Positions 1,357 through 42,863 of a stretch of 43,932 nucleotides of DNA are shown here, one piece after another. The position numbers and the translations under genes are program-made. Where the stretch lies: NCBI GenBank assembly GCA_018992685.1, contig JACVGT010000027.1, forward strand, positions 1 through 43,932. Direction: 5' to 3'. A model generated the notes under the pieces. The model had not been told where the DNA came from and ran no database searches. It saw nothing but the letters and a program-made list of their open reading frames with translations. This DNA is from Theionarchaea archaeon (GTDB lineage: Archaea > Methanobacteriota_B > Thermococci > Methanofastidiosales > SZ-28-30). Position 1 is the first letter of the stretch. Each line of letters starts with the position of its first letter.

Positions 1357-1638
1357 CTATGTTCGATGACGATCACGCAAGATCCTCCACGAGTGTTTCA
1401 TCCTCGAAATCGAATCACCCAAAAACAAAACTGCGCCAAGCCACATAAAAGGAACGCCCACCCACCAAAGACTCAGTATCATGGCTGACCCTATTCCCAG
1501 AAATAGTATACCAAGGGGCATTATTGCAGTCCTTGAATTGAGTGATGACGTCTTTTTCAGATAAACAAAGTACAGAACTGCAAATAGGATCACCAAGAAG
1601 GTAAAGTAAAAAAGGCTAAGATATGCAAGATTTTCCAT
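1357..1638 (-). CDS. Small membrane protein (93 aa, ~3 TM helices); candidate RHS immunity protein 2
   Basis: Hydrophobic ORF with RBS GGAGAGGTGA; overlaps the end of the upstream gene; second gene downstream of the RHS toxin. Confidence 0.7.
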   Translation of the reverse strand: MENLAYLSLFYFTFLVILFAVLYFVYLKKTSSLNSRTAIMPLGILFLGIGSAMILSLWWVGVPFMWLGAVLFLGDSISRMKHSWRILRDRHRT

Positions 1639-1993
1639 TCATATCACCTCTCCTCGCATGATTCAGATATATGTTCTTCAGAAAACGGAGGATTAATGGA
1701 ACCTGAATGCAAGTAAGTACCATTAGTGCCACTTCAAATCTAAGAATTTCTGCAGCAAAGAAGAGCCAGAGGAGACCAAGGACAACAAATGGGATGATTA
1801 TCGAGAACGCCTTGGCTCCGGCAAAGAACAAAGGCGCAGCTTCTTCCAAGCTATTAGACAGTGTCCCAGAATCAATTTCAGTCTCGTTTTTTTTGCAATA
1901 GTAGATCAAAAAGGCTGTCACTATTGTTGTTATTACGAAAAGAACACTAGTCACAATCCTGACTGTTAGTGATAAGATCATGGCAATATCCAT
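1616..1993 (-). CDS. Small membrane protein (125 aa, ~3 TM helices); candidate RHS immunity protein 1
   Basis: ATG lies 1 nt after the RHS stop codon, with GGAG RBS inside the RHS 3' end; strongly hydrophobic. Confidence 0.75.
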   Translation of the reverse strand: MDIAMILSLTVRIVTSVLFVITTIVTAFLIYYCKKNETEIDSGTLSNSLEEAAPLFFAGAKAFSIIIPFVVLGLLWLFFAAEILRFEVALMVLTCIQVPLILRFLKNIYLNHARRGDMNGKSCIS

Positions 1994-1994
1994 T

Positions 1995-7565: not shown

Positions 7566-7974
7566 GTTCCCAACCTCCAAAGCTTTGTACTGACTTCGCC
7601 GTCTGCATGTGCATACTTTTCGATCTGTAGACTTTGCCGTCAATACAGTTCAGCCACGGATATCTGTGCGATATTTTATTTAAACTTTTCGGTTCGGTTT
7701 GTATGAAATGTACTCTTATCTCAGTCTTGTGGTAACTAAGGCCGGACATATTAGTCTTGATTTGGGATTTTGTCTTTGAACGAATTTCCAGGATGACCTA
7801 TTTTCGTTATCAATTCTTGAAAGAACTAATTAGAGTTAATTGAAATCTTCATCATGTCTTATTTCTCTGGGGAGAAAAATATCCGTATGAAAATCATTCA
7901 ATTCAAAAGGATTGAATCCAGCACTATACTGCTCTCTCGAGTTCCGGAAGCTTGTAACTTCTCACCTTTCCCAC

Positions 7975-9339: not shown

Positions 9340-9378
9340 ATGATCACCATTAGTAGTCTTATCACCTCTCATATCGTC

Positions 9379-10764: not shown

Positions 10765-10929
10765 GAAGTCACCTCGACGTTATGATTCCAGGTTGGAACC
10801 CCGAGACAGGCACGCTCCAGACAACACATTCTCATCTCTCACTGGTCTTTTCACTCTCTTTTGGGAATCCGTGTCCTGACCTGAACACGAGTACCTTCTC
10901 TGTTCAGGACTGGGTTTCTCCTAGGTAAC

Positions 10930-11088
10930 CTAGCATATCAAGGTTCTGCAATAAAATGCACAGCAACAGCCACCACAGCCACAGACACCGTAGGGTGTAA
11001 CAATTATTTCACATAAGGAAGGGGACTCATTCATGTCTACTATGAGTACGTTCGTCCAGAGCTTCTTGTTCACTCGTAGCGCTTTCAT
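10930..11088 (-). CDS. Cys-rich RiPP precursor peptide, 52 aa: MKALRVNKKLWTNVLIVDMNESPSLCEIIVTPYGVCGCGGCCCAFYCRTLIC
   Basis: Hand translation (below the ORF-track cutoff). RBS GGAGGTGA at 11093-11100. 8 Cys, all in the C-terminal half. First gene upstream of two SPASM enzymes on the same strand. Confidence 0.85.
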   Translation of the reverse strand: MKALRVNKKLWTNVLIVDMNESPSLCEIIVTPYGVCGCGGCCCAFYCRTLIC

Positions 11089-11121
11089 GGGCTCACCTCC
11101 ACTGTTTTCTCGATCTCTTTA

Positions 11122-11135
11122 GTTAAAAACTTTTG
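11122..11135 (-). promoter_or_regulatory. BRE/TATA promoter of the precursor-rSAM operon
   Basis: Minus strand CAAAAG-TTTTTAAC about 25-30 nt upstream of the precursor RBS. Confidence 0.5.
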
Positions 11136-11482
11136 GGTTCTCTCTTCAATTTCCTTGCGTGTCTTGAACCAATCGAGACTTTCCGGGTTGTCACGAGATT
11201 GATTCTGTGTCTTTCCCTGCGCGCGGATTCGTTCTGCGTGTGATCTCACCGGATCGGGCAGAGGGTCAACAAAAGCAACATTTATAAACTTCTAATGCAT
11301 GCGGTATTGTTGTGGACGCAGTCTCAAGACTCAGTCAAAAAACGCCTGATATTCGGGCATTTTGTCTTATAGTCAATCTCAGTGCCTTGATTGTCGCCCT
11401 TTGAGGATGCAGGGAGGCGCCTTTTTGTCTGGGAAGCAGAAACAGGATTCCTTGCTTCATTGGGAATAATGGAGAGAGATTC

Positions 11483-12610
11483 ATGGTAAGAATTGTTCAC
11501 ATAGCAGACGTGCACCTGGGATATTGCTGTAAGAATGTTGGTGATAAATCCGCCAGCAGAGAACAGGATTTCTTGAATGCTTTTCAGCGTGTTGTGGACT
11601 ATTGTTGTGACCCAGGGCATCATGTGGATGCCCTCATCATAGCAGGTGACCTCTTTGACATGGCTGATCCCCCTTCAGACCTGGTGGGATTCGTCCAGAA
11701 AAATCTCTCCTCCATGAGGCAGAATGGAATTCTGGTAGTGGGCGTTCCGGGTACGCATGATGCATATGGATATAAATCGTGTATTTATCGAAAAAACCAG
11801 CTTGAGGGAATGCACATTCTCGTTTCTTTAAAGGAACCGTTCATCAGAGAATTATCAGGAGAAAAAGTGTTCTTCTACGGGGCAGCATACATACCCGGTG
11901 TGAGCGAGAACCATTTCAAGTCCTTTTCGCCTTTTCAGGAAGAAGGAATCCACATTGGGATCATACATGGGTCAGTGGGGCTTCCTCACCACTGGGAAGG
12001 GAGGGGTCAGGACCTCCACATTGACGAGCATGAGATTGCCCGTTCTAACCTTGATTATGTGGCTCTCGGACATTTCCACAATTTGAAACAGATGACGTGT
12101 GGCAATACCCTGGCAGTTTACCCGGGAAGTCTTGAGGGCAAAGACTTTTCTGAAAGTGGCCAGCGATTCATGGTAGTGGTGGATTTCAGGGGAAAGAGTC
12201 CTCATATTACTCCAGTTCCAGTCAATACCCGTACAATCAAGACGATTGACATCAACCTCAGTAACCAGCCGCTGGAATCCATGAATGACCTTGTCACCTA
12301 CATTTCACGAACGTACAGCGATCCCGCCTCCATCATCAGCCTCAATCTACAGGGGGCCTGTCAATTCCCACTGGACCTGGAATACCTGCGCCACGCCCTT
12401 GGTGATCAGTTCTTCTATCTTCAGCTGAAAGATTCCACCACAGTGGTGGACAGTGATATCGTATCCTCCTGGAAGGAAGAGCGCACCATCAGAGGCATGT
12501 ATGTTACGACTCTCCTCCACAAGATCGCCAGGGCTGAAGGTGAAGAGAAGTTAATTCTTGAAGAAGCCCTCAAGATCGGGATCACCAGCTTCATGGAGGC
12601 ATCCCCATGA
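11483..12610 (+). CDS. Mre11/SbcD-family DNA repair exonuclease (YhaO-like metallophosphoesterase)
   Basis: Motifs HIADVHLG, AGDLFD, PGTHD, IHG, ALGHFH, YPGSLEG; coupled by ATGA overlap to the ATPase. Confidence 0.88.
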   Translation: MVRIVHIADVHLGYCCKNVGDKSASREQDFLNAFQRVVDYCCDPGHHVDALIIAGDLFDMADPPSDLVGFVQKNLSSMRQNGILVVGVPGTHDAYGYKSCIYRKNQLEGMHILVSLKEPFIRELSGEKVFFYGAAYIPGVSENHFKSFSPFQEEGIHIGIIHGSVGLPHHWEGRGQDLHIDEHEIARSNLDYVALGHFHNLKQMTCGNTLAVYPGSLEGKDFSESGQRFMVVVDFRGKSPHITPVPVNTRTIKTIDINLSNQPLESMNDLVTYISRTYSDPASIISLNLQGACQFPLDLEYLRHALGDQFFYLQLKDSTTVVDSDIVSSWKEERTIRGMYVTTLLHKIARAEGEEKLILEEALKIGITSFMEASP

Positions 12611-14736: not shown

Positions 14737-14826
14737 ATGATTTCAGGAGAATGGCTTTTTGAAACCTTTGATGGCACATTGACCGCAAATGGCGGTCCTG
14801 GTGCAGGATCAGGAAACCCAACTTAA
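14737..14826 (+). CDS. Small Gly-rich peptide, 29 aa: MISGEWLFETFDGTLTANGGPGAGSGNPT
   Basis: Hand translation. RBS GAGGTGAT just upstream and TATA TTTATATTTAAA at ~14696-14707. Stop codon overlaps the stop of the convergent regulator (TTAA 14823-14826). Confidence 0.65.
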   Translation: MISGEWLFETFDGTLTANGGPGAGSGNPT

Positions 14827-15749
14827 TCCCAATAGAGAGGAATAAGGAGAAAGTAATCATCAATATATCCTTTTTCCTCTAATTTTTTTATGGCAAACAT
14901 CATATCAACTGCGCCTTCATGAAAGATGTCAAGTACGATCTCCTCCTGCAGAAGGAAGACGTAGGTGGTACAGGGAAGCTTGCTGAGGACTCTCACAAAA
15001 TCCTTTTCATACTTAGACTTGAGCACAATCAGTGACTGCTGGTAGTGGCTGTAACCCCTGGGGAAGAAATAGTGAGCTATTTCACAGCATGGCAGAATCC
15101 CCTCGTTGAAATACTTCCTGACAGTGTTGGGGGACACGTGACATGCTCGTGCCACCTGTGAAAAAGGCTTCTGGACGTTGGTTTTCATGCAATCGAAGAT
15201 GCGGAATTCGGAATCCCCCCAGAACAGAAACTCCTCCATCTCTCTCAGGAACTTCCCTGCAGACAGTTCAGAATCTGCAAGTCTCCTAAAGGATTCTTTC
15301 ATTTCAAGGTTCCACCCGACTGGATGTGTATAGACGGGATTATATAAAATGGATTTTTTCTTTATAGTAAGTCCCGGCTGAAAGGTCAGATCAGACTTAG
15401 AGGTTACGAGAAAGTCATATCTCCCAGAAAGAAGCAGCATATACGAGAGAACATGATCATCAATGAGGGATTTAAGGGAAGAGAACATTGTGGTGAGGTT
15501 CTTGGGATCATCTACTTTCAGGAAGTATGCTCTCGTGTAGCAATTCTCAAAATTTCTCAGAATCAGGTTGGGATGTAGAGAGATTCCACGCTGATACAAG
15601 TTCCTGACATAATTGGAGGCAGTAGTGTACGAATGTCCCCGGCCGCTGAGTCCCAATGTTCTGGCGATGGTTTTGAGGTTATATCTCGGTATGTCTCGAA
15701 TATGATTGTAGATGACGTAGTACGTTTGCAGGTTTTCAAGTTTTCCCAT
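14823..15749 (-). CDS. Tandem winged-HTH transcriptional regulator (duplicated Lrp/AsnC-like architecture)
   Basis: Two HTH-like segments (NLKTIARTLGLS..TASNYVRNLYQRGI; QKPFSQVARACHVSPNTVRKYF), each followed by a beta-alpha-beta RAM-like region. Confidence 0.65.
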   Translation of the reverse strand: MGKLENLQTYYVIYNHIRDIPRYNLKTIARTLGLSGRGHSYTTASNYVRNLYQRGISLHPNLILRNFENCYTRAYFLKVDDPKNLTTMFSSLKSLIDDHVLSYMLLLSGRYDFLVTSKSDLTFQPGLTIKKKSILYNPVYTHPVGWNLEMKESFRRLADSELSAGKFLREMEEFLFWGDSEFRIFDCMKTNVQKPFSQVARACHVSPNTVRKYFNEGILPCCEIAHYFFPRGYSHYQQSLIVLKSKYEKDFVRVLSKLPCTTYVFLLQEEIVLDIFHEGAVDMMFAIKKLEEKGYIDDYFLLIPLYWD

Positions 15750-29792: not shown

Positions 29793-29878
29793 TAGCTCTT
29801 TAAGACAGAAGAGAGAACTCCAGTGCCAGAGCAGGTGTGAGGAAAGTCTTGCACCCCTGGTTCCGGTGGGATGTTGAG

Positions 29879-31201
29879 ATGACTCAGCACGTCTCATCTC
29901 AGAGCATGCGGACATTTTTCGTTATCTGGATAGGGCAGTTTGTCTCATTGATTGGATCCGGGCTGACTGGCTTTGCCCTGGGTGTATGGATATTCTTGAA
30001 AACAGGGTCTGTCACTCAATTCACCTTGATTGCACTGTCTGCAGCTGTACCAGGCGTTCTGGCTTCCCCCTTTGCAGGCGCTCTGGTTGACCGCTGGGAC
30101 AGACGGTGGGTGATGATACTGAGTGATTGTGGAGCAGGCATCTGTACACTGGCCATTGCTGTATTGCTGTATTCACAGCGCCTTTCAGTGTGGCACATCT
30201 ACCTGACCACTGGGGTGACCTCTGTTCTCAGCACCTTTCAGTGGCCTGCCTACGTTGCTGCTACCACACTGCTGGTCCCAAAGCGACATCTCACCAGGGC
30301 CAGTGGTATGGTACAGACGGGACAGGCAGTATCCCGAATTCTCTCACCCATCATAGCAGGCATACTCATTGTGGTTATTGATATTTGGGGAGTCCTAGTC
30401 ATAGATTTTGCCACCTTTCTTTTTGCCATGACCACGCTCCTCTTGACAAGAATCCCCTCCCCTGTGACAACTTCTGAAGGAGCGGGTGCGAGAGGTTCTC
30501 TGCTCCACGAGGCTGCGTTTGGGTGGAAGTATATCAGGGCCCGTGTGGGCCTTCTGGCTCTGCTTCTTTTCTTTGCAGGAGCAAATTTCTCTTTCGCCTT
30601 TTTTACGGTATTATTCACTCCCATGATATTGAGTTTTGCCTCCCCCGCGATTCTGGGCAGCGTGCAGTCAGTGGGGGGCGTGGGTATGCTGGTGGGCGGA
30701 TTTGCCCTGAGTACATGGGGGGGACCCAGAAAACGTGTATACGGAGTGGTGGGATTTGGGTTTGTCCTGGGGGCTGCAGTCATCATGAGCGGTCTCCGTC
30801 CAGATCCTGTACTCATTGCAGCTGCGCAATTTGCGGGGTTCTTTACGTTGCCCCTTATCAATGGATGTAGCCAGGCTATCTGGCAGGTAAAGACGCCTCC
30901 GGATGTACAGGGTCGCGTATTCTCTGTGCGAGCAATGATTGCCTGGTCGACTACTCCTCTTTCCTATCTCCTGGCAGGCCCCCTGGCAGACCAAGTATTC
31001 GAACCCATGATGGCACCGGGCGGAATTCTCTCAGCCAGTGTTGGACAGGTCATCGGAACTGGTCCAGGCAGAGGCATTGGACTCATGTTCATCATACTGG
31101 GCGCTGTTATGGTGGCAGTCTCATCAGTGAGTATTCTGTACTCACGATTGCGACACGTAGAGGATGAACTCCCTGACATGATTGAAGAAGAAGACGTGTG
31201 A
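29879..31201 (+). CDS. MFS transporter (DHA3/macrolide-efflux-like)
   Basis: IWIGQFVSLIGS, AGALVDRWDRRWVMI, FQWPA, QGRVF; ~12 TM helices; start ATG 29879. Confidence 0.9.
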   Translation: MTQHVSSQSMRTFFVIWIGQFVSLIGSGLTGFALGVWIFLKTGSVTQFTLIALSAAVPGVLASPFAGALVDRWDRRWVMILSDCGAGICTLAIAVLLYSQRLSVWHIYLTTGVTSVLSTFQWPAYVAATTLLVPKRHLTRASGMVQTGQAVSRILSPIIAGILIVVIDIWGVLVIDFATFLFAMTTLLLTRIPSPVTTSEGAGARGSLLHEAAFGWKYIRARVGLLALLLFFAGANFSFAFFTVLFTPMILSFASPAILGSVQSVGGVGMLVGGFALSTWGGPRKRVYGVVGFGFVLGAAVIMSGLRPDPVLIAAAQFAGFFTLPLINGCSQAIWQVKTPPDVQGRVFSVRAMIAWSTTPLSYLLAGPLADQVFEPMMAPGGILSASVGQVIGTGPGRGIGLMFIILGAVMVAVSSVSILYSRLRHVEDELPDMIEEEDV

Positions 31202-31253: not shown

Positions 31254-32546
31254 TTAGATTTCACCTAGAAGCAGTGGTTTTTCCCCAATTCCTGCCTTGA
31301 ATGCAGCGTAGAATTCTTCCATTTCTTCTCTTTTCTTCTCTGCATGTTCCTGTCCCACGATCACTGATTTCTTGGCATCATCGAGTTCATCCAGATCGCT
31401 GGAGGGAGCGTACTGACTGTAGACGGGAGTTCCGGGATAGGGAGTCAGGACGGAAAAGAGTGCGTACGTGGGATTGATCTCTTTGATGAACGCTTTGGTT
31501 AACTCTATGTCGTGTGACGTTTCCACGGGAGCACCAACGATGAAATAAGCATGGGTTGCAACATTCATGTGGTGACACAGAGAGAAAACAGTTCTGCACT
31601 GGGCAAGCGTGAACCCCTTGTTGTACCAATCGATGATTTTCTTACTTCCCGATTCCACTCCAAACGCGATGCAGATGAGGCCTGATGACTTCATGAGTGA
31701 CAGCAGTTCGCTGTTCACTGATTCTACTCGCGCCTGGCATGCCCATTCCAGGTCGATTCTCTCTTTCTTAATTGTCCTGCAGATTTCTCTCACTCTTTTC
31801 CTGTCATGAACGAAAAGATCGTCTACAAACCAGACTCTGTCAAATCCCATTTCCTCTATGATCAGAAGCTCATCTGTCAGGTTCTTTGCAGACCGTGCTC
31901 TAAATTTCCTGCCAAATACTGTCTTTGAACAGAAGGAGCAGTGAAAGGGACATCCTCGTGAAGAGAGGACTGACGTGACTGTTTTTGGATAGGTTGATCT
32001 CCAGTGGTCCAAGTATCGAGCGATGGGTAGCTTTTCTCGTGCAGGGAAGGGCACACCGTCAACATCCGTAATGAGTGGCCGTTCTCCGGGGCACACTGTT
32101 CTCCCCTCCACATACGTGAAACTCCCTGGTACAGGGGGCATCTCTCCTGCTTCTATATGGCGAGCAATGTCAATAAAGGTCTCCTCACCCTCTCCCTGCA
32201 CCACATAGGTACATCTCTTGAGGAACAGTCCCGGATCCATGCTGCTGGGGCCCGGACCTCCAACGACAACCGGTATCCTGCGGTCTTTCATCTTTTCGGC
32301 AAGACTGAGCGCAGATTTTATCTGTCCAAAAGAAGCAGAAATACCCACCATGTCTGCATTGATGGAGGTAACCCTGGCTTCATACTGAGACTCTGTCAGA
32401 ATCGTACTGTCTATGACTTCTACTGTATGTCCCTCTCTTTCCAGCACTGCAGCCAGGTAGAGAATTCCCAGGGGTGGCCACAGCTCAGGATCTCCTCTGA
32501 AGCATCCTCCTACCCGTGAAGGTGGAAAGACCAGTAAAACTCTCAC
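31254..32546 (-). CDS. B12-binding radical SAM enzyme (C)
   Basis: N-terminal cobalamin domain (PPLGILYLAA, VVVGGP, GEGE), SRGCPFHCSFC, FVDD, GVESG, TPYPGT. GTG start after GGTGA. Confidence 0.9.
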   Translation of the reverse strand: MRVLLVFPPSRVGGCFRGDPELWPPLGILYLAAVLEREGHTVEVIDSTILTESQYEARVTSINADMVGISASFGQIKSALSLAEKMKDRRIPVVVGGPGPSSMDPGLFLKRCTYVVQGEGEETFIDIARHIEAGEMPPVPGSFTYVEGRTVCPGERPLITDVDGVPFPAREKLPIARYLDHWRSTYPKTVTSVLSSRGCPFHCSFCSKTVFGRKFRARSAKNLTDELLIIEEMGFDRVWFVDDLFVHDRKRVREICRTIKKERIDLEWACQARVESVNSELLSLMKSSGLICIAFGVESGSKKIIDWYNKGFTLAQCRTVFSLCHHMNVATHAYFIVGAPVETSHDIELTKAFIKEINPTYALFSVLTPYPGTPVYSQYAPSSDLDELDDAKKSVIVGQEHAEKKREEMEEFYAAFKAGIGEKPLLLGEI

Positions 32547-32550
32547 GCGA

Positions 32551-33879
32551 TCACCATTGGTCCTCCAGAGCAAAATCAGGATCGCTCTCTTTCTTGAAAT
32601 CAGTGAACCGGATATATGCTCTTTCAATCATGGCTTCTGCTTCTGCGCTGGAAAAATGTGGATGTTCAAACACCAGGGACATCCTGTTATCAAATGTGTC
32701 AAATCCCTCGGTCACAGTCTCGACTTCATGTGATAATCGGGTTCCTGGAATCGGAATGGGAAGTGAGAACTCCACGCTATCAGGGTCAATAGACATGGCA
32801 AATCGTATCGTATCTTCAACAGTTTCAGGTGTGTCACGGGGAAATCCCAGTATGAAATAGGCGCACCGCTTGATTCCAGCCTTCCTGGTCATTCTGAAAG
32901 CCTTTTTCACTGCCTCTAAATCGTGCCCTTTTCCGATATACCTGAGAATATCAGGGTTTCCAGATTCCACCCCGAACCCAATCCAGGTGCATCCTGCTTT
33001 CCTCATGGCTTCCAGCATGTCTCCGTCAATCGTATCAACGCGGCTCTCACAGTACCATTCCAGGTCGGGATGCTCTTTCCGGAGCTCCGCGCACAGGTCG
33101 AGAACACGCTTTCTATCCAGCGTGAACAAATCATCAGCAAACCACAATTTGTCGATTCCCCTCCCTTCCAGGTATGAAATCTCAGGCATGATATTCTCTA
33201 CTGATCGTGCCCTGTAGAGGGTGCCAAAAACGCTCTTATCACAGAAATTGCATTTATGAGGACATCCTCTTGAGGAAAGCAGTGATGTGCAGGTAAATTG
33301 GAAGTATTCTTTCCAAACAGCCATGTACTTTTCAAAAATGAAGTTATCCCTGTCCGGGAACGGGATTGAGTCAACATCTTCGATAATGGTAGGAGGGCCA
33401 TGGTGTACGCCATGTTCTTTCCAGACCAGGTTTGGGATTGCTGAATCAGCAGGCACGGTACAGTCATCGGATGCCTCCAGACATTCTGCTAGCACGGTGA
33501 TGGCTCTTTCACCTTCTCCTGCCACGAGGAAATCGACATCATCACAGGTTATCAGCTGGGGGTAGCATGATGGCAGTGGGCCACCGATAACCACGGGCAG
33601 CGACTGCTCTTTGAGCGTTCTGCAGGTTTCAAGCAAGGCGGAATAATGCAGGAGAGTAGAATACACTCCTGCCAGATCAAAGTCCCTGCCTTTACAGAAT
33701 GATTTCAAATCCTTCTGGAATGTCCCGTCGAAAACTGAAACAGAATGCCCCTGTTCAGAGAGAGCAGCAGAAATGTACAGAATTCCCAGTGGAGGGAAGG
33801 GAGCTTGCGTTGGGACAGGGTCAAACACCAGAGGTTTCCGCGGAGCATCGAGAGGAGGAACCACAAGGAGGATGTTCAT
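32551..33879 (-). CDS. B12-binding radical SAM enzyme (B)
   Basis: PPLGILYISA, IGGP, GEGE, SRGCPHKCNFC, FADD, GVESG, PIPGT. Confidence 0.9.
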   Translation of the reverse strand: MNILLVVPPLDAPRKPLVFDPVPTQAPFPPLGILYISAALSEQGHSVSVFDGTFQKDLKSFCKGRDFDLAGVYSTLLHYSALLETCRTLKEQSLPVVIGGPLPSCYPQLITCDDVDFLVAGEGERAITVLAECLEASDDCTVPADSAIPNLVWKEHGVHHGPPTIIEDVDSIPFPDRDNFIFEKYMAVWKEYFQFTCTSLLSSRGCPHKCNFCDKSVFGTLYRARSVENIMPEISYLEGRGIDKLWFADDLFTLDRKRVLDLCAELRKEHPDLEWYCESRVDTIDGDMLEAMRKAGCTWIGFGVESGNPDILRYIGKGHDLEAVKKAFRMTRKAGIKRCAYFILGFPRDTPETVEDTIRFAMSIDPDSVEFSLPIPIPGTRLSHEVETVTEGFDTFDNRMSLVFEHPHFSSAEAEAMIERAYIRFTDFKKESDPDFALEDQW

Positions 33880-33883
33880 CTCG

Positions 33884-35191
33884 TCACTTCCGGGGCCGTG
33901 AAAGACATGCAGCACAGAATTCCAGATACAGTTCGTGGAGCCTGTCCTTGGCAATGTGCTCTGTTACCATGATGGGCTTATACCCCTGGTAATCCTCCCA
34001 GTTCTTGTACATGCCCTGGTGGACGCCCACATCTCCATCTTCTATCATTTTTTCAAGTTCAGTCCCTGGAAAGGGAATAGGGAACTTGCCATACGCTATG
34101 AGGTTAAGCCCGAATTCTTTTCTCAAATGTTTGACCAGGTTAATGGACTTTTCAATGTCTCCTTCTGTTTCCCAAGGAAATCCAAGTATGAATCCCACCA
34201 ATATCTGGTCGATACCAGCTGAGAACGCTTTTTCAATAGCTTTTATACCTGCCTGGACTGTAGTCCCCTTTTTCACGTGATCCAGGTTATCCTGTGATCC
34301 TGTTTCCAGTCCATAGTATACTGCGTAGCATCCTGCTCTTTTCAATTCTCTGAGCAAGTCTGTGTCAATGGTATCCACCCGGGTTTCACAATTCCAATCA
34401 ATATCCAGGCCTTCTTCCCGTATCAGTGTGCAGATTTTCAATGCGCGTTTCCTGTTGAGCGTGAAGGTGTCATCCCCGACCAGGATCTTCTTCTCAGGAT
34501 ACAGGTCATGTACGTATCTCAGTTCCTGCACAACGTTTTCTGCAGATCTGAACCGATACTGCCTGAACATCCTGCGGGTGGAACAGAAGATACATTTGTG
34601 GGCACATCCCCTGCTGGTGTTAATTGCCACCATACCGTACTCAGGATAGTTGCCCAAAGGGAAGAGATCATGTGCAGGAAAGGGGAGCGCATCCAAATCA
34701 GAAACAAGGGGGGCATCCTCAGTCCGCACAAGAGACGTATGACGATATGTCAACCCCCTGATTGGGCGGGGATCGTGCTGCTTCTCAAGGCAGTCCAGCA
34801 GCTCAACGATGGTGTGTTCTCCCTCGTTTCTCACCACGTAGTCCACACACTCCTGTGAAGCTGCATCGAAATCTTCAAAAGTGGCATGGATACCACCCAG
34901 GATCGTCGTGACAGTAGGATCACACTGCTTACACGCAGTGAGGGCTCTCAGTGCAGGCCGATATCCCACAGTAGCCACAGAACACCCCACCACGTCAGGC
35001 TTGAATTTCTTCATGACACCTTTCACTGATTCTGGAGTCAACCCCTGAGAGGGCATGTCCAAAACGTCAATGGTATGTCCCGCCTCCCGCAGAACTGCAG
35101 CAATGTAGGCAAGTCCGATCGGGGTGGAATTTAGCCAATCAGAGTCGTGGGAAGAGTAGGGCCGTGGAGGTTGTATGAGAAGAACTCTCAT
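33884..35191 (-). CDS. B12-binding radical SAM enzyme (A)
   Basis: PIGLAYIAA, LGGIHAT, NEGE, SRGCAHKCIFC, GDD, GLETG, PFPGT. Confidence 0.9.
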   Translation of the reverse strand: MRVLLIQPPRPYSSHDSDWLNSTPIGLAYIAAVLREAGHTIDVLDMPSQGLTPESVKGVMKKFKPDVVGCSVATVGYRPALRALTACKQCDPTVTTILGGIHATFEDFDAASQECVDYVVRNEGEHTIVELLDCLEKQHDPRPIRGLTYRHTSLVRTEDAPLVSDLDALPFPAHDLFPLGNYPEYGMVAINTSRGCAHKCIFCSTRRMFRQYRFRSAENVVQELRYVHDLYPEKKILVGDDTFTLNRKRALKICTLIREEGLDIDWNCETRVDTIDTDLLRELKRAGCYAVYYGLETGSQDNLDHVKKGTTVQAGIKAIEKAFSAGIDQILVGFILGFPWETEGDIEKSINLVKHLRKEFGLNLIAYGKFPIPFPGTELEKMIEDGDVGVHQGMYKNWEDYQGYKPIMVTEHIAKDRLHELYLEFCAACLSRPRK

Positions 35192-35204
35192 TGTATCCCT
35201 GTCC

Positions 35205-35450
35205 CTACTCTTCTCCAAGCCCGATAGTTCCAACCTTTTCTACAAATTCCCTTACACTGGTAGTGGCTGCTTCCTTGTCCACATCGAAAATCTTCATCAG
35301 TTCTGCTACAATCTCCTGTTCCGGCTTTTCCAGAAGCTTCCAGACGATTGCACCACTCTTGTTAGTCTTGTAGATCTTACCATCTGCAGGATCAAACACC
35401 AAAACGTTTTCATCCTGATCTCTCCAAACGATATCTGGATTTAGTTTCAT
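35205..35450 (-). CDS. Stand-alone PqqD-family RiPP recognition element (RRE), 81 aa
   Basis: LNPDIVWR..VLVFD...GKIYKTNKSGAIVWKLL..EIVAELMKIFDVD...A..SVREFVEK: the three-strand/three-helix PqqD pattern. First gene of the B12-rSAM operon. Confidence 0.88.
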   Translation of the reverse strand: MKLNPDIVWRDQDENVLVFDPADGKIYKTNKSGAIVWKLLEKPEQEIVAELMKIFDVDKEAATTSVREFVEKVGTIGLGEE

Positions 35451-35499
35451 TTTCGTCACACTCGATAGCAAATTCAGTGGATGGATCTCGCGTAGTTAC

Positions 35500-35549: not shown

Positions 35550-36245
35550 GTGCGTATGATATTTATTTCAGCTCACCCGGACGATGCATTCTTAGGAGCA
35601 GGAGGTGTCATTCTCAAACACAGGGCACTGGAAGATGATATTCTCCTGATCAATGTGACGTCAGCGGAGAAAGGGTTGCCATTTGTGGAAGAGGGCTTTT
35701 TGAGAGCAGTGAGAGAGAAGGAGCAGGACATCTTATGCAGGAACCTCGGCATTGCTGTAGAATTCCTTCATGTACCAGATTTGAAAATACAATATGCGGG
35801 AGAAGAACTGGTGAACCACCTCATCCTGAAAATCCGGCAGTTCACTCCAGATCTGGTGTTCACTCACTACCCTGAAGATATTCATCCAGACCACAGATCA
35901 GTGAGTTCTGTTGTGAAAACAGCATGTCATCTCAGTACATTCCCCAAGGTGTGTCCTGATGCACCCACGCACACGATTTCCAACCTGTTCATGTGGGAAG
36001 AATACAGCACCCGGGACTTCAGACCCATGGTGTATGTTGATATAACCTCAGAATATGAGCAGAAAAAGGAGACGCTCAGAGAATACAAGACGCAATACCC
36101 CATTTTGAGGAATGTGTTTTCTCATGCTGAATTGCAGCCCAGGGTTCGCGGAATTGAGGCCGGATGTGAGTACGCAGAAGCATTTCATTGTCCATGGCCT
36201 GTGACTGCAGGCGATTTGTCTCAATTCAGAAGGAGGCGTACGTGA
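35550..36245 (+). CDS. PIG-L/LmbE-family N-acetylglucosaminyl deacetylase (BshB/MshB-like)
   Basis: SAHPDD, REKE, THYPEDIHPDH, YKTQ, AEAF; RBS GGAGGAG. Confidence 0.9.
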   Translation: MRMIFISAHPDDAFLGAGGVILKHRALEDDILLINVTSAEKGLPFVEEGFLRAVREKEQDILCRNLGIAVEFLHVPDLKIQYAGEELVNHLILKIRQFTPDLVFTHYPEDIHPDHRSVSSVVKTACHLSTFPKVCPDAPTHTISNLFMWEEYSTRDFRPMVYVDITSEYEQKKETLREYKTQYPILRNVFSHAELQPRVRGIEAGCEYAEAFHCPWPVTAGDLSQFRRRRT

Positions 36246-36247
36246 AC

Positions 36248-37534
36248 ATGATTGTGCTGATAAATCCACCTTACGTTTCAGAATGGGGCCCTCGAGTCAA
36301 CATAGGTCTTGGGTATGTGGCAGGAGTCCTGCGGGAGCATGGAATAGAGGTCAAAATCATAGACGCAACAGCAAGAAAGACGTCAGTTGATGACATCGTG
36401 GGTCGTGTTTCTTCTCTTGATCCTGATATTGTGGGAGTGTCAAGTATTGCTGCAACATACCCTGTGTCGCTGGACATTTTGAAAGCAGTGAAGAATCGTC
36501 TCTCTGTATTCACTGTTATGGGGGGATTGATGCCCACGTATCTGGACATGCAGACTGCTGGACTGGAGTATGTGGATGCGGTGGTCAGGGGAGAAGGAGA
36601 ATACACTTTTCTGGAGCTTGTAAGATCATATGCTCAAGGGACGTATACTGCCACCCAGGGCGTTACCTGCAAGAACCATGGAACTGTTGTCAGAAATCCA
36701 GATAGACCACTCATTGAGGATTTAGACACTTTGCCTTTTCCTGCCTATGATTTATTTCCCACAAAAGAGCTCATGCAGCAATCAATTCCCAAGAATGCTG
36801 CAGTCATGTCCACAAGCCGTGGATGTCCCTACAACTGTAAATTCTGTTCAATGAACACATTTTTCAGGAGAAAATGGAGGGGAAGGAGTGCCGTAAATGT
36901 CTTTGAGGAAATGAAAGTCCTGCGCTACGAATATGGGGTTGAAGAGCTGCAGATTGTGGATGAGCTCTTCACGTTTGACATGAAGCGAGCGGAACAGATT
37001 TCAGATTTTCTCATTGAAGACGAGACAGAACTACGGTGGATTTGTGAATCACGGGTAGATAGGCTTTCTGAGAACCTTCTGGAGAAGATGAAGAAAGCTG
37101 GCTGTTATGCTGTGTGCCTTGGGGTGGAGAGTGGTGTTCAGTCCATCTTGGACAGGGTGGGCAAAGGGATTGATCTCCACCAGGTAGAACATGCAGTGCA
37201 AGCGTGCAAGAGAGTAGGCATCAAAGCCATTGGTTCCTTTATCATAGGTCTTCCCTCAGAAACGGAAGGCACGGCAAGGCAGACGCTTGAGTTTATCAAA
37301 CGTCTGGACTTTGATCGAGTTATCATACACAATTTGAATCCATATCCTGGCTCTGAAATATATGAAAATCCGGAAGAATACGGAATTACTATTGTCAATA
37401 AGCAGTTCTCCACATACCATTTTTTTGCTCCTGTCTGCGAGACAGACGGGTTCTCCATAAAGCAGCAGGCACATCTATGGCTGGATATTCTCTGTGATCC
37501 GTTTTTTGTAAAGAGAGGGATTACCATTCCCTAG
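36248..37534 (+). CDS. B12-binding radical SAM enzyme (D)
   Basis: NIGLGYVAG, MGGLMPT, GEGE, SRGCPYNCKFC, GVESG, NPYPGS; ATG after GGAGG. Confidence 0.9.
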   Translation: MIVLINPPYVSEWGPRVNIGLGYVAGVLREHGIEVKIIDATARKTSVDDIVGRVSSLDPDIVGVSSIAATYPVSLDILKAVKNRLSVFTVMGGLMPTYLDMQTAGLEYVDAVVRGEGEYTFLELVRSYAQGTYTATQGVTCKNHGTVVRNPDRPLIEDLDTLPFPAYDLFPTKELMQQSIPKNAAVMSTSRGCPYNCKFCSMNTFFRRKWRGRSAVNVFEEMKVLRYEYGVEELQIVDELFTFDMKRAEQISDFLIEDETELRWICESRVDRLSENLLEKMKKAGCYAVCLGVESGVQSILDRVGKGIDLHQVEHAVQACKRVGIKAIGSFIIGLPSETEGTARQTLEFIKRLDFDRVIIHNLNPYPGSEIYENPEEYGITIVNKQFSTYHFFAPVCETDGFSIKQQAHLWLDILCDPFFVKRGITIP

Positions 37535-37542
37535 GAGATTCC

Positions 37543-38631
37543 ATGAAAGTACTTCTACTGTCACAGTACAGTCCTTTTGTAGGTGGAATTGAAACGAGGA
37601 GTCAGAATATGCTCGAATACATGGAGAATGAGTTTTCAGTGGTCTCCCCCCTGCTTCCCCCTCACAGTAAACATCCCCTGAGAGATTTCAGTCCCGATGT
37701 CCTCTACCTGGACTACAGTAATCGGGGTGAGTTTCTCAAGAATGTCCAGGAGCATATCGACATGAGAGAGGTTGCTGTCATTGATGTGCAATGCAATGTG
37801 TATCTGGGACTCCTGGGGCTCATGCTTTCCCAGGTAACAGGAAAGCCCCTCATTTCCAGCTTTCACATGAACCTGCTTCACCCTGATCATGCAGAAAAGG
37901 CATTCTTCTCAGCTCACCGTGATTTGATAGCCCAGCTCATATACGACAGTGACAGGATCGTCTGCGTATCAGAGAGCGTCAAACAGAGTGTCCTTGACTT
38001 TTCTTCTGCAGCAGAGGCAAAAGAATCTGTGTTGCACGTCGTAAGCAATGGAGTGGATGTGAAGACGTTTCACCCCAGAGAAGATGTGAGTAAACAGGAT
38101 GAAAAAGAGAAGGCGCTTCTCTTTGTGGGGAGATTTAGCAGGGAGAAAAACATTCCATTCCTCCTGAGGCTGTATTCTAAGATCAGAAAGGATACGAGGT
38201 ATGTGCTCTGGCTGGTAGGGGACGGTCCGGAGAGACAATCGGTGGAACAGCTTGCGAGAACTCTGAAAATCGAAGATTCCACCACGTTCTGGGGGAACCT
38301 GTATGGTGAAGAACTGGCCAGAGTGTATGTGGAGGCCTCATTCACGGTGTCTCCCTCGTCTACAGAGGCCTTTGGCATGACCACGCTTGAATCTGTAGCA
38401 TGTGGCACTCCTGTCTTGGCTTCCAACAACCCGGGGACTACAGAGCTCATGCAGCAGCTTGAAGGAGGGGTTCTCTTTCCTTCAGGAGACTTTGAAGGTG
38501 CAGTAGCCGCCTTTAGGAATCTGGTGAGAGATTATGATCACTACCGGACCAAAGGACTCCAAAATGTTCAGAAATTCGCGTGGCCTCGAGTACTCTCCCC
38601 TCTCAAAGACCTTTATGACCTGTACCTGTAG
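37543..38631 (+). CDS. Glycosyltransferase family 4 (GT-B)
   Basis: GGIE, VSNGVD, FVGRFSREKN, VGDGP, EAFGMTTLESVACG. Confidence 0.9.
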   Translation: MKVLLLSQYSPFVGGIETRSQNMLEYMENEFSVVSPLLPPHSKHPLRDFSPDVLYLDYSNRGEFLKNVQEHIDMREVAVIDVQCNVYLGLLGLMLSQVTGKPLISSFHMNLLHPDHAEKAFFSAHRDLIAQLIYDSDRIVCVSESVKQSVLDFSSAAEAKESVLHVVSNGVDVKTFHPREDVSKQDEKEKALLFVGRFSREKNIPFLLRLYSKIRKDTRYVLWLVGDGPERQSVEQLARTLKIEDSTTFWGNLYGEELARVYVEASFTVSPSSTEAFGMTTLESVACGTPVLASNNPGTTELMQQLEGGVLFPSGDFEGAVAAFRNLVRDYDHYRTKGLQNVQKFAWPRVLSPLKDLYDLYL

Positions 38632-38658: not shown

Positions 38659-39402
38659 TCAGGTGAATACGGGTTTGAGAGTACCAAAAGAGGTTTCCAC
38701 CTCCTCAGGAGTGGTGACCCCGATGACGCAGGAGTCTATCAGGTGTTTATGCTCTCGAAGAAATGGGACCACCCTATCCAGAGTCAGCCATCCCCCTGCC
38801 ATCACCTTCTTGGCAATGACAGGCACGTCCACTGCTGCAAGCGCCTTCAAGGTAGCCTCTAGAGATGGCTTCATCATAAATCCCAGGGGATTGAACCCAC
38901 ACAGGCAGAAGTCCACTCCCGCTGCCTGCAGGGGTTGTGCGGTTTCACCTGGAAAATGGGTGGCAGCGCCTGCGGGTGTGCCCGCGTCCTGGAGCACCTT
39001 CAGAACCTCAGTCATCACATGGAGATTCCCTGACCGAATGAGAGCGTCAGAAATAATCCCGTGCAGGCACACTCTCACATGGGAGAGCTGGTGCAGCACT
39101 GTGAGTTCTTGCTGGATTGCACTGAGGATTTCTGTTGCACTGACGCTTTTCATGAACTCTCCGGTGGGCCTGATGTCAGCTCCTATCACACCGGTGACTA
39201 TGAAGTCATAACACGAGAACAGAGCTCCTAAATCAGGGGTGGTCTGGAGAACCGCCCCACAAACGCCGACAGAATCACACGCATCTAGAATTGCTCTCTT
39301 TTCTGCATCAGAAAGGATAACTTTCTTTTGCGACACGTAGCTATATCCGATAAAGGGATTCGTACCTACGTTGAAGGTGGGTATATGCAGATCAGGACTC
39401 AT
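38659..39402 (-). CDS. Degenerate aldo/keto-reductase-like TIM-barrel protein (paralog 1)
   Basis: GTNPFIGYSY, GAATH, NPLGFMM, VIAKKVMAGG, IGVTTPEEV; clear paralog of 42108-42863; start overlaps the end of the 25-aa peptide gene. Confidence 0.65.
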   Translation of the reverse strand: MSPDLHIPTFNVGTNPFIGYSYVSQKKVILSDAEKRAILDACDSVGVCGAVLQTTPDLGALFSCYDFIVTGVIGADIRPTGEFMKSVSATEILSAIQQELTVLHQLSHVRVCLHGIISDALIRSGNLHVMTEVLKVLQDAGTPAGAATHFPGETAQPLQAAGVDFCLCGFNPLGFMMKPSLEATLKALAAVDVPVIAKKVMAGGWLTLDRVVPFLREHKHLIDSCVIGVTTPEEVETSFGTLKPVFT

Positions 39403-39469
39403 ACGACACCATCAACACTTCGATCTCCCGGATATCCGGCTTTTCAAAAGGTTGTTTTTCGTCGCTCAT
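39392..39469 (-). CDS. Putative RRE-dependent precursor peptide, 25 aa: MSDEKQPFEKPDIREIEVLMVSYES
   Basis: RBS GAGGTGA at 39475-39481; TTTATAAA at 39510-39517; FxxPxI motif; overlaps the start of the next gene by 11 nt. Confidence 0.75.
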   Translation of the reverse strand: MSDEKQPFEKPDIREIEVLMVSYES

Positions 39470-39538
39470 GTATTTCACCTCTGCATGTGGCGCCCCCTTA
39501 TCCTGCAGGTTTATAAATCTTATGTTGGGAGTTGTCAT

Positions 39539-40480
39539 ATGATTGCGCGATCCAGAGTTTTGGTCACAGGAGGCGCTGGCTTCCTTGGTTCTCACTTAAG
39601 TACTCGCCTGGTTGAGGAAGGGGCGGAAGTAACTGTCCTGGACAATCTCAGTGCAGGAAATCTCCAGCGTCTTCAGAATGTGGCATCATGCGAGAACTTC
39701 CATTTTTTCAAAGGAGATATCAGGAATACAGAAGATGTCAAGCAATCTGTGAAAGATAAAGACATCATACTCCACTTTGCTGCGAAAGTAGGTGTGATAA
39801 GGGCAGCTTCTCAAGGAATTGACGTCCTGGATACAACACTGAAAGGGATTTCCCTTCTTCTTGCCGAAAGCACAAAATGTGACGTCAAGACATTCGTATA
39901 TGCCTCATCCTCGGAGGTGTACGGAGAACCTTCGCGTCTTCCCTCCCGTGAAGATGATCCCCTGATTCCCAGATCGACGTACGCTGTGGCAAAAGTGGCA
40001 GCCGAACGGTATTGCGAAGAGTACGGAACGCTCTACGGGATTGATACCTGTATATTTCGCTATTTCAACGTCTATGGACCACGTCAGAATGATAATTTTG
40101 TCATCCCTCAGTTTCTTCACCATGCGCTCAGGGGCGAAGCTCTTCCAGTATATGGCTCTGGGGCACAGACCAGGGATTTCTGCTACATTGACGATGCTGT
40201 TTCTCTGACTCTTGAAGGTATGAAATGGAATAAAGGATTCAATATCTTTAACGTGGGATCAGGTGAACCTATTTCTTTGAAAAGGCTGGCCGAACTTGTT
40301 TCCTCACTTTCAGCGAAGGAGTGCAGCATTGCCTTTGTGGATTTGGATACGAGAAGGCCTCAGGAATATGAGATTATACACAGACAGGCAGATATCTCAA
40401 AAATCGTTTCACTGTGTGGAGTCTCACCGAAACACAGTCTGGAAGATGGGTTACGAACGTGTCTTGAAGCTCTGATGTAG
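39539..40480 (+). CDS. NAD-dependent NDP-sugar epimerase/dehydratase (extended SDR)
   Basis: VTGGAGFLG, HFAA, ASSSEVYG, YAVAK (YxxxK), RYFNVYGP, QTRDF. Confidence 0.92.
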   Translation: MIARSRVLVTGGAGFLGSHLSTRLVEEGAEVTVLDNLSAGNLQRLQNVASCENFHFFKGDIRNTEDVKQSVKDKDIILHFAAKVGVIRAASQGIDVLDTTLKGISLLLAESTKCDVKTFVYASSSEVYGEPSRLPSREDDPLIPRSTYAVAKVAAERYCEEYGTLYGIDTCIFRYFNVYGPRQNDNFVIPQFLHHALRGEALPVYGSGAQTRDFCYIDDAVSLTLEGMKWNKGFNIFNVGSGEPISLKRLAELVSSLSAKECSIAFVDLDTRRPQEYEIIHRQADISKIVSLCGVSPKHSLEDGLRTCLEALM

Positions 40481-41341: not shown

Positions 41342-42103
41342 ATGATTCTCTTGTGCGTTGTGCATGTGAAGACAGCAGCCGTGAGTTCAGTGTATAAGAG
41401 CCGGGACCTGACAGCAGCATGCGATGCTATACTTGACATCGGATATGACTGTGTAGAGGTGATGGCATATCCTCCTCATGTTGACCTTTCACAGACATCA
41501 AGGGTCCAGGAGGTACTCTCCCCATACGAGGGACACATTTCTGGATTCGGTATCTACGAAAACCTGTGTGACCTCAGGGAGAATTACCGGATCAAAGCAG
41601 TGGAAGAGACCATTACCTGCATTGAACTGTGCAACAGAACAGGGGGAGAATTTGTCGTGTGTCAGACCGGCATCGCTCCGTCCTTTTTGAGAAATGAAGC
41701 GAGCAGCGCATTTGAAAAGTCTCTGGACCGGATTCTCCCTGCAGCTCATGACTTCCAGGTCTGCCTCGCACTTGAGAATGCTCCCTCCACATTGCTGGCG
41801 ACGGTTGAGGAAACGAGTTCCTTCCTTGATCACCACACTGACCCAGCTATCTGCCTGACTGTGGATCCAGTGAACTTTTTTGCTGCCCAGTGCAGTCCCT
41901 CCGACGCTGAGAGACTGGTTCGAAGAACAGTGAATCTGCACCTCAAGAATGTGGCATCGGGACGCGAAGCACCTGTTTCTCAGGGCGAGGTGGATTTTCA
42001 CAGGGTACTCTCTTTTCCATGGACCTCCGTTTTCACAGCAGAATATGAGGAAACAGCAATGACAGAGGAATTTCTTCGCGATGCACGTCTATTTCTTGGG
42101 TGA
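41342..42103 (+). CDS. Sugar-phosphate isomerase/epimerase (xylose-isomerase-like/AP-endonuclease-2 TIM barrel)
   Basis: GYDCVE, LALEN, VDPVN, LHLKN, GEVDF, AEYE metal-ligand pattern. Confidence 0.82.
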   Translation: MILLCVVHVKTAAVSSVYKSRDLTAACDAILDIGYDCVEVMAYPPHVDLSQTSRVQEVLSPYEGHISGFGIYENLCDLRENYRIKAVEETITCIELCNRTGGEFVVCQTGIAPSFLRNEASSAFEKSLDRILPAAHDFQVCLALENAPSTLLATVEETSSFLDHHTDPAICLTVDPVNFFAAQCSPSDAERLVRRTVNLHLKNVASGREAPVSQGEVDFHRVLSFPWTSVFTAEYEETAMTEEFLRDARLFLG

Positions 42104-42107
42104 TAGT

Positions 42108-42863
42108 ATGAAAATATCTACACGATGCCTGAACGGCACTGAGTATTCCCGAATCATTTTGGGTTGTAACCCCTTTATTGGCTGGTCATACAGGGGAAAA
42201 GCACTTGCTCAGCACTACAAGGAGAAATTTTCAAGCCCCGAACCCGTACGGGAGATTATAGTCCACGCGTACCAGTACGGGATAAATGCCATTATGACGA
42301 CAGCAGATGAACACGTACTCCAGGCTGTCGCTTCAGCCCAGAAAGAGGTGGGCGAGATTAGTGTCCTTGGAATGCTGGGGTATTCTATTGAAGGGTATCG
42401 GAATTTCAAAGAAGACATTAGAAAATTCAGCAGCATATCAGCGTCTGCAGCTGTGATTGTGGCTGAGATTACTGACCCTCTCATCCAGAAGACACCCATG
42501 TTGTTTGATGCCTATAAAGATGAGGTTTCCAAGGAATTCGATACAGTGGGGGCTGCTACCCACAACCCTGCTCTCACCTTCCCCTACCTTGAGACCACAG
42601 AGCTCGATTTTCTCGTGGCAGCTGTAAACCCTGCAGGGTTCATGATGGGAAAGAAGGAGGAATCACTGCAGCTGATAAAAGCATCTCAGAAACCTGTTGT
42701 AGCCAAGAAAACTCTGGCAGGCGGCACTGTGGACCCCCTGACAGGGATTGAATTTGCTTTTTGTGAGATGGCGGTGGATTTTGCGGCGGTAGGTGTTGCA
42801 TCACCCGAGGAAGTGGATCAGGACGTAGAGGCCTATCTCAAGGTATCCACCAGGGATACATAG
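42108..42863 (+). CDS. Degenerate aldo/keto-reductase-like TIM-barrel protein (paralog 2)
   Basis: SRIILGCNPFIGWSY, AYQYGINA, GAATH, NPAGFMM, VVAKKTLAGG, VGVASPEEV. Confidence 0.65.
   Translation: MKISTRCLNGTEYSRIILGCNPFIGWSYRGKALAQHYKEKFSSPEPVREIIVHAYQYGINAIMTTADEHVLQAVASAQKEVGEISVLGMLGYSIEGYRNFKEDIRKFSSISASAAVIVAEITDPLIQKTPMLFDAYKDEVSKEFDTVGAATHNPALTFPYLETTELDFLVAAVNPAGFMMGKKEESLQLIKASQKPVVAKKTLAGGTVDPLTGIEFAFCEMAVDFAAVGVASPEEVDQDVEAYLKVSTRDT

Follow-up and report, generated by a model that had tools for sequence, protein, structure and literature searches.

The window considered here, contig JACVGT010000027.1 over its whole length of 43,932 nucleotides, carries on its minus strand a 25-codon open reading frame (ORF) that encodes MSDEKQPFEKPDIREIEVLMVSYES and runs into the start of a gene for a 247-aa protein with an aldo-keto-reductase (AKR)-like fold. 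We propose, with a probability of roughly 0.55, that this small ORF is a real translated gene for a very short precursor or scaffold peptide that depends on a RiPP recognition element (RRE; RiPP, peptide made by the ribosome and modified after translation), and that it is coupled to the AKR-fold gene. Its partner would be a stand-alone PqqD-family RRE of the same cluster, whose gene is followed by genes for three B12-binding radical S-adenosylmethionine enzymes (B12-rSAMs). The host, an uncultured archaeon from sediment, belongs to the Theionarchaea/Methanofastidiosia, a placement that comes from the database names of matches. Coordinates of the features are collected in Table 1.

A reading of this DNA made from sequence alone had described a ribosome-binding site, an upstream TATA box, an overlap with the next gene and a hidden ORF, and all of these are present where it had placed them. 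In the mechanical ORF list the frame appears, as that reading had remarked, only as the tail of a 67-aa ORF with a GTG start (39392..39595). The N-terminal part of this longer ORF extends, in antisense, into the epimerase gene, and it lacks conservation in the relative G001, the one other species discussed below (KGAP versus EKVL at four adjacent residues). The TGA stop of the small ORF (39394-39392) lies inside the 247-aa gene, whose ATG at 39402 is the earliest possible start in its frame, and the two genes overlap by 11 nt. Across the genome, an ATG follows GAGGTGA at 4-8 nt in 205 of 684 sites (30%), and 112 of these 205 precede ORFs of at least 100 codons. Permuted control heptamers in the same genome have an ATG at this distance in 2537 of 25986 cases (9.8%), so that an ATG follows GAGGTGA about three times as often as it follows the controls. 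Moreover, the peptide contains a motif of the form [FWY]xxPx[LIVM], which occurs in 403 of the 15864 ATG-started ORFs of 20-30 codons in this genome (2.5%). Shine-Dalgarno-led ORFs of at least 12 codons were also sought in six intergenic regions, five of them within the cluster; besides the small ORF the cluster has only an 18-codon TTG ORF inside the epimerase gene, and the five regions hold no second credible candidate.

The TATA box has a symmetrical placement. From its end to the ATG of the epimerase gene (39539, plus strand) there are about 22 nt, and about 22 nt also separate it, on the minus strand, from position 39488, exactly the point at which the alignment with G001 becomes conserved again after a diverged spacer at 39499-39489. 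By this geometry, the one symmetrical box looks like a shared bidirectional archaeal promoter that would give one leaderless and one Shine-Dalgarno-led mRNA. The epimerase mRNA is probably the leaderless one, and the mRNA of the small ORF is predicted to begin near 39488 with a leader of about 19 nt.

Comparative evidence comes from G001 and consists of four substitutions. In a DNA search with the region in the genomes G001-G003, only G001 matched (96%), and G002 gave a 21-nt chance match (E 0.26). The small-ORF locus was found in only one other species, and there the whole cluster is syntenic. The peptide of G001, MNDEKQPFEKPDIREIEVLMVSYES, is identical to that of the window at 24 of 25 residues. 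At the nucleotide level, 74 of 78 positions are identical, and the changes are one second-position substitution (S2N) and three synonymous third-position substitutions. The expectation of the sequence-only reading that the ORF would be conserved in syntenic relatives is borne out in this sole syntenic relative, with three of the four changes synonymous. Over the cluster alignment with G001 (8595 columns, 79.4% identical), only 1.6% of 78-nt windows are as conserved as the small ORF. For comparison, codons that are identical in meaning in six neighbouring genes differ at the third position in 510 of 1391 cases (37%), and fourfold sites differ in 271 of 684 (40%). Among the products compared, conservation is highest in PqqD (94%) and the peptide (96%), and six other cluster genes stand at 72-85%.

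Further relatives of the peptide were sought in several ways. Of 16 sequencing runs listed, none of them an RNA run, four were mapped at 80% likeness; a 12,028-nt contig repeats the four changes of the G001 type, and no new small-ORF variant was found in those runs, the other three reaching only 35-40 nt, in the Rossmann motif of the epimerase or at 39140-39175. In the protein database the only relative of the peptide is a 48-aa call of the G001 form, and none was found among database proteins of 30-35 residues. A tblastn search of its own genome gave no paralogue, the best other match covering 16 residues (E 0.007).

The same nucleotides are also predicted to form a structure. Between the predicted 5′ end and codon 8 of the 247-aa gene, a stretch of 109 nt folds as one long hairpin, which persists when it is folded in a 149-nt context. 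In it, codons 2-6 of the 247-aa gene are paired with the 5′ end and the Shine-Dalgarno site, and the downstream AUG of that gene is paired with the CAU(G) of the small ORF. In G001 the hairpin has the same energy (-31.5 kcal/mol) with a z-score of -3.4 (-3.0 in the window), and 0 of 200 shuffles were as stable. The sequence-only reading had overlooked this stable, conserved hairpin over the whole ORF, which is a rival or an additional cause of the conservation. An Rfam search of 39200-39700 gave no match at E<=1.

All four substitutions in G001 keep the hairpin: one turns a G-U pair into an A-U pair, another shifts the register of the apical stem with no change in energy, and the remaining two fall in loops. 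Since all four are compatible with the hairpin, the substitutions alone cannot separate coding from RNA structure, but rates can. If coding were the only constraint, three changes at 24 third positions would be too few (p 0.009). If RNA structure were the only constraint, two changes at 29 unpaired ORF positions would be far too few (p 7e-5 at 40%). Sites that are both unpaired and synonymous changed at about the neutral rate (2 of 6), compared with 2 of 72 elsewhere (hypergeometric p 0.028). In this one pairwise sequence comparison, coding and RNA constraint acting jointly fit the conservation best.

The hairpin suggests the alternative that survives best, namely a cis-acting leader in which the mRNA hairpin and its upstream ORF merely open the start codon of the AKR-fold gene, and the peptide has no function and never meets PqqD. 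The stability of the fold, the pairing of the Shine-Dalgarno and AUG regions of the small ORF with the following gene's AUG and its codons 2-6, the maintenance of the hairpin through all four substitutions and the 11-nt stop/start overlap all agree with it. In addition, G001 shows no difference over the 38 nt with which the 247-aa gene begins (39402-39365), although the N-terminus encoded there, MSPDLH, varies in remoter homologues. However, such a leader does not account for unpaired positions that are near-invariant when about 40% change is expected, nor for an RRE-type motif found in 2.5% of small ORFs, nor for a predicted docking on PqqD far above its controls, and Rfam recognises no known element here. 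We consider a leader of this kind, as the whole explanation, rather unlikely. It is compatible with the precursor reading as a second layer. As a separate observation, the hairpin covers the identical stretch only to 39385; the remainder to 39365, which holds a CACCU word resembling an anti-Shine-Dalgarno sequence, lies outside it.

Evidence on the peptide itself comes from its predicted contact with PqqD. The sequence-only reading had placed an RRE at 35205-35450, and the protein encoded at 35205-35471 is indeed a PqqD-family RRE. It probably starts at Met8, the start called for it in G001. At E<=0.001 the protein has 305 relatives, and among NCBIfam models it weakly matches the lasso, ScmD and GeoRSP PqqD models, all below cut-off. 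Structure prediction of the peptide with this RRE, a check named beforehand, was run with PqqD as a 71-row alignment of our own making and the 25-aa peptide as partner. The interface score ipSAE was 0.81, 0.81 and 0.82 in three runs, with at least 96% contact agreement between runs and a partner pLDDT of 70-71. Two unrelated natural 25-mers scored 0.17 and 0.02, and replacement of PqqD gave 0.02. Of 80 solved complexes 58 attain the mark used for ipSAE, as do 2 of 110 mismatched pairs, in a calibration with no partner below 30 residues. In the predicted interface, peptide residues 5-18 lie on PqqD, most tightly P11-E15 against PqqD residues 33-44 and 72-76, and L19-S25 remain free. One of the five PqqD differences from G001 falls in the 30-residue interface, where 1.9 would be expected, a comparison that is uninformative on the interface.

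FEKPDI had been proposed as the RRE docking site, and the predicted complex, with residues 5-18 on PqqD at 0.81 against 0.17 for the best control, agrees with this proposal in silico. By its sequence, FEKPDI also fits the published aromatic-x-x-P type of recognition: lasso leaders carry the recognition motif YxxPxL at -17 to -12, and the RRE groups FusE, McjB, PqqD and StsC bind W/Y/L-x-x-P/L/I. A Shine-Dalgarno site, an ATG, an open frame, a motif of 2.5% frequency and predicted docking are unlikely to come together by chance. Two features of an RRE-dependent pathway are present, the PqqD/RRE protein and linked tailoring enzymes, namely a B12-rSAM whose gene starts before the PqqD stop, in an overlap, and another two behind it.

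Other RRE loci in the same genome were observed as well. On contig C7 (about 3558-7811) a Shine-Dalgarno-led small ORF, MKTWIDPLAQKMEGAEIDPLGVSKCSCGCDPTLIP, starting with MKTWIDPL, is followed in its operon by a 329-aa protein of no family, a radical SAM enzyme with a SPASM domain (rSAM-SPASM), a PqqD and another radical SAM enzyme. On contig C17 (about 3218-9714) a Shine-Dalgarno-led ORF, MKYVEPEVFEFAEESITDKCLAMWATFTPT, starting with MKYVEPEV, stands directly before a PqqD-rSAM-SPASM fusion; the opposite strand carries a B12-rSAM, a transglutaminase-like protein, an rSAM-SPASM and a second PqqD. Small ORFs of this kind before rSAM-SPASM/PqqD genes point the same way as the docking. Shine-Dalgarno-led micropeptide ORFs that begin with MNFLKGWPFEPL or close variants occur on contigs C5 (two copies), C13, C14, C19 and C22, and end in Gly/Pro-rich tails such as GGGSPG. 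Kinship of the small ORF with this family was considered and left unproven, the PFE(K)P likeness spanning only 4-5 residues.

According to our model, ribosomes would load at the 5′ Shine-Dalgarno site, perhaps while the 3′ arm of the hairpin has yet to be made. The hairpin would hide both the start codon of the AKR-fold gene and the ribosome site of the small ORF itself, and translation of the peptide would open it and expose the AUG of the AKR-fold gene. If ribosomes translating the peptide open the start of the AKR-fold gene in this manner, the two genes would be translationally coupled. The peptide would then dock through residues around 5-18 (KQPFEKPDIREIEV, with the F-x-x-P-x-I motif) as an added strand on the stand-alone PqqD, and PqqD, translationally linked to the three B12-rSAMs, would present the free tail LMVSYES to one or more of them. 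By analogy with ApyD, the likeliest modification may be a C-methylation, or else some other radical reaction, on or close to Tyr23, Val21 or Ser22. Translation of the ORF, binding to PqqD, the acting enzyme, its chemistry and the involvement of the sugar enzymes are steps that we infer.

Several points weigh against this proposal. The comparative evidence is thin, with four substitutions from one other species, and at least three of four changes would fall at third positions by chance with p 0.11. The over-conservation of synonymous sites indicates a constraint besides coding on the stretch, every change is also compatible with the hairpin, and functional RNA loops can be conserved too. The peptide is encoded 4 kb from PqqD, on a separate transcript and beside a sugar-type enzyme; no family model recognises it, and a Pfam scan of the window proteins found no peptidase in the cluster. 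The docking score is uncalibrated for partners below 30 residues, and may partly reflect memory of solved RRE-leader complexes.

The close tie with the 247-aa gene allows another reading, in which the small ORF encodes a micro-protein that works with the coupled AKR-fold enzyme, as a small subunit or carrier in a sugar pathway, and not with the PqqD/B12-rSAM genes. The 247-aa protein has no Pfam (E<=0.01) or NCBIfam match and no sequence relative in the PDB at E<=10. Its AlphaFold2 model (pLDDT 72.9) has AKR14A1/YghZ as top Foldseek matches, at E about 1e-6, TM about 0.6 and 16-18% identity; the earlier label 'AKR-like' holds for the fold and finds no AKR family match by sequence. Eight homologues with 54-82% identity are in the protein database. 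The protein was matched in 3 of 41 relatives and in 3 of 133 phylum genomes (the source genome included), with the G001 protein (72%) as sole ortholog. A scan of genome contigs led to two loci, namely that of the G001 record and one in a TA06 bacterium whose protein is a 28% homologue, and a scan of metagenome contigs gave two partial matches at 35%.

Around the TA06 homologue (119-11870) are genes for a DegT aminotransferase, four family 4 glycosyltransferases (GT4), a Gfo/Idh/MocA protein, a phosphodiesterase and an asparagine synthase, and these surroundings tie the 247-aa family to glycan tailoring. Such a glycan context, together with translational coupling, would suit a micro-protein partner of the AKR-fold enzyme. 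However, neither the TA06 homologue nor the two paralogues inspected have such an upstream ORF, the window paralogue at 42081-42863 directly follows a TIM-barrel gene, the peptide has no paralogue in the genome, and the docking prediction, made for the PqqD pair only, favours PqqD. We regard this reading as improbable.

Similarly doubtful is a form of the peptide reading in which the peptide serves as a disposable scaffold and not as a precursor of the antibiotic type. Once it is docked on PqqD, its C-terminal Ser/Tyr tail would be glycosylated by the GT4, the sugar would be de-N-acetylated by the PIG-L enzyme, and sugar and side chain would be remodelled by the four HpnJ/ApyD-like B12-rSAMs and the AKR-fold and TIM-barrel enzymes. 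The product, an equally speculative part of that proposal, might be an amino-sugar or cyclitol-type small molecule or cofactor, borne by the peptide or derived from it. Such a pathway would merge an archaeal version of the logic of pyrroloquinoline quinone (PQQ) and mycofactocin with the glycosyltransferase/deacetylase/B12-rSAM logic of hopanoid cyclitol-ether synthesis.

Hard to credit, too, is a chance ORF within a stretch conserved as bidirectional promoter and 5′ untranslated region, with frame, Shine-Dalgarno-like heptamer and motif all coincidental. In its favour, the whole of 39621-39340 is highly conserved and not just the small ORF, chance alone should account for about a third of GAGGTGA-ATG pairs, only two sequences are known and no entry of the 25-aa form was found in the protein database. 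Yet conservation falls exactly in the TATA-to-start spacer and returns at the predicted transcript start, which fits a transcribed functional element, and start signals, frame, motif and docking are jointly unlikely.

Table 1. Features of the small-ORF locus and of the surrounding gene cluster
Feature	Coordinates	Strand	Basis or remark
25-codon small ORF, MSDEKQPFEKPDIREIEVLMVSYES	39392..39469	minus	ATG...TGA translation; proposed precursor or scaffold peptide
Shine-Dalgarno site GAGGTGA	39475..39481	minus	5 nt upstream of small-ORF ATG
Predicted RNA hairpin enclosing the small ORF	39385..39486	minus	Minimum free energy -31.5 kcal/mol, z -3.0
Palindromic TATA box TTTATAAA	39510..39517	.	Conserved in G001; promoter role from geometry
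247-aa protein, aldo-keto-reductase-like TIM-barrel fold, no known family	38659..39402	minus	AlphaFold2 and Foldseek; start overlaps small-ORF stop
Stand-alone PqqD-family RRE, 88 aa	35205..35471	minus	PF05402, E 1.1e-12, 48.5 bits against cut-off 23.4
B12-rSAM, overlapping end of PqqD gene	33884..35233	minus	PF02310 and PF04055
Second B12-rSAM of PqqD operon	32551..33954	minus	Pfam/NCBIfam
Third B12-rSAM of PqqD operon	31254..32627	minus	Pfam/NCBIfam
PIG-L family de-N-acetylase, divergent from PqqD gene	35550..36245	plus	PF02585, E 1.9e-26; BshB1-like, below cut-off
Fourth B12-rSAM, between deacetylase and GT4	36188..37534	plus	HpnJ model, 190.5 bits against cut-off 577.6
GT4 glycosyltransferase, convergent with small ORF/AKR-fold pair	37543..38631	plus	PF00534, E 3.7e-33
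NAD-dependent epimerase/dehydratase, divergent from small ORF	39539..40480	plus	PF01370, E 3.1e-59
Major facilitator superfamily (MFS) transporter	29837-31201		Bounds the cluster's other side
Polysaccharide deacetylase, xylose-isomerase-like TIM barrel, 260-aa paralogue of the 247-aa protein, another GT4			Beyond the epimerase

The radical SAM genes of the cluster are of the B12-binding type without SPASM (Pfam). For the enzyme that overlaps the PqqD gene the best NCBIfam matches are BchE, ApyD and HpnJ, all far below cut-off, and the order of the PqqD and B12-rSAM genes is identical in G001. The plus-strand operon of PIG-L deacetylase, B12-rSAM and GT4 (35550-38631) hints at sugar ring remodelling, and we take this trio to represent the same enzyme types as the hopanoid HpnK/HpnJ/HpnI set. 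Farther away in the window, two adjacent radical SAM genes (465 and 461 aa, 7975-10764, minus), with no B12 or SPASM domains, stand beside a 1882-aa ORF (1995-7643). In addition, a Shine-Dalgarno-led 29-codon ORF, MISGEWLFETFDGTLTANGGPGAGSGNPT, with a Gly/Pro-rich tail (14737-14826, plus), is convergent with the gene of a 308-aa winged-helix protein (14823-15749), their ends overlapping by 4 nt.

RRE-guided peptide modification is well known in bacteria, and our searches of open-access papers and preprints brought up none that describes one from Theionarchaea or Methanofastidiosa. If the precursor reading is true, the peptide would be among the shortest precursors known, served by a stand-alone PqqD and four B12-rSAM paralogues amid sugar-tailoring genes. 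It would offer a concrete, testable substrate for enzymes whose chemistry sequence cannot reveal. Moreover, it would illustrate how a cluster may be completed by a gene of 25 codons, too small for gene callers to report, and a peptide code and an mRNA hairpin within the same 78 nt would make a tidy archaeal example of translational coupling.

The PQQ pathway is one of the known peptide systems that come close. The likeness to PqqA/PqqD/PqqE lies in the peptide length (about 25 residues), in the PqqD chaperone and in the lone near-C-terminal Tyr flanked by Glu, and the difference in the partner radical SAM enzymes, which are of the B12 type here and of the SPASM type in PqqE. A family link to PqqA found no support: neither the window peptide nor that of G001 has a Pfam or NCBIfam match at E<=10, and the PqqA model (PF08042) has 0 matches at E<=10 in the six-frame translation of the whole genome (24 candidates scored). 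The ExxxY core of PqqA is absent, and the difference in Glu-Tyr spacing noted earlier is real: in EVLMVSYES, Glu17 stands six residues before Tyr23 and Glu24 follows it. A search with the PqqC model drew a blank in the genome and in the 14 controls alike.

Mycofactocin is made from a very short precursor, MftA, with an RRE chaperone, MftB, and a radical SAM enzyme, MftC, which acts on C-terminal residues including Tyr, and the small molecule derived from the peptide is later glycosylated by the glycosyltransferase MftF. The peptide here differs in having no C-terminal Val-Tyr, and the cluster in having no SPASM enzyme; a search for a mycofactocin precursor gave no NCBIfam match at E<=10. With lasso precursors the peptide shares the aromatic-x-x-Pro-x-aliphatic pattern, F8-x-x-P11-x-I13 (Phe for Tyr and Ile for Leu), and a predicted contact with a stand-alone PqqD. 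Assignment as a lasso precursor was rejected. A scan of 20 window proteins found neither a lasso cyclase (Asn-synthase-like) nor a B2 protease (transglutaminase-like), and the peptide ends 12 residues after the motif; in lasso precursors this length is the remainder of the leader, and therefore there is no room for a lasso core of about 15-25 residues.

By model comparison, the nearest characterised peptide-acting B12-rSAM is ApyD. [quoted passage not shown] The two systems would share a short peptide recognised by an RRE and a B12-rSAM acting near the C-terminus, and the cluster B12-rSAMs match the ApyD model at E about 5e-55. Membership of the ApyD type (NF050148) was rejected, the cut-off being 750 bits and the scores of the four enzymes 186.9, 123.2, 154.9 and 187.4 bits, with matches that stop at model position 400 of 645 and cover only the B12 and radical SAM part. 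The chemistry is left open by scores so far below the cut-off, and other B12-rSAMs cross-link aromatic residues, according to the abstract of PMC12257519. In contrast to the ApyD pathway, the RRE is separate here, there is no multinuclear non-haem iron-dependent oxidative enzyme (MNIO), P450 or ApyS, and four B12-rSAM paralogues stand in an archaeal host with interleaved sugar enzymes.

The locus also resembles coupled upstream ORFs in structured leaders, with a stop/start overlap and a hairpin that hides the downstream start codon. It differs from them in that the product of the ORF has a recognisable protein-binding motif and that unpaired bases are conserved too. In size and layout, a leader followed by a short tail with one Tyr, the peptide resembles cofactor precursors more closely than antibiotic RiPPs. 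In silico, it works like an RRE-dependent precursor, distinct from PqqA and from lasso precursors.

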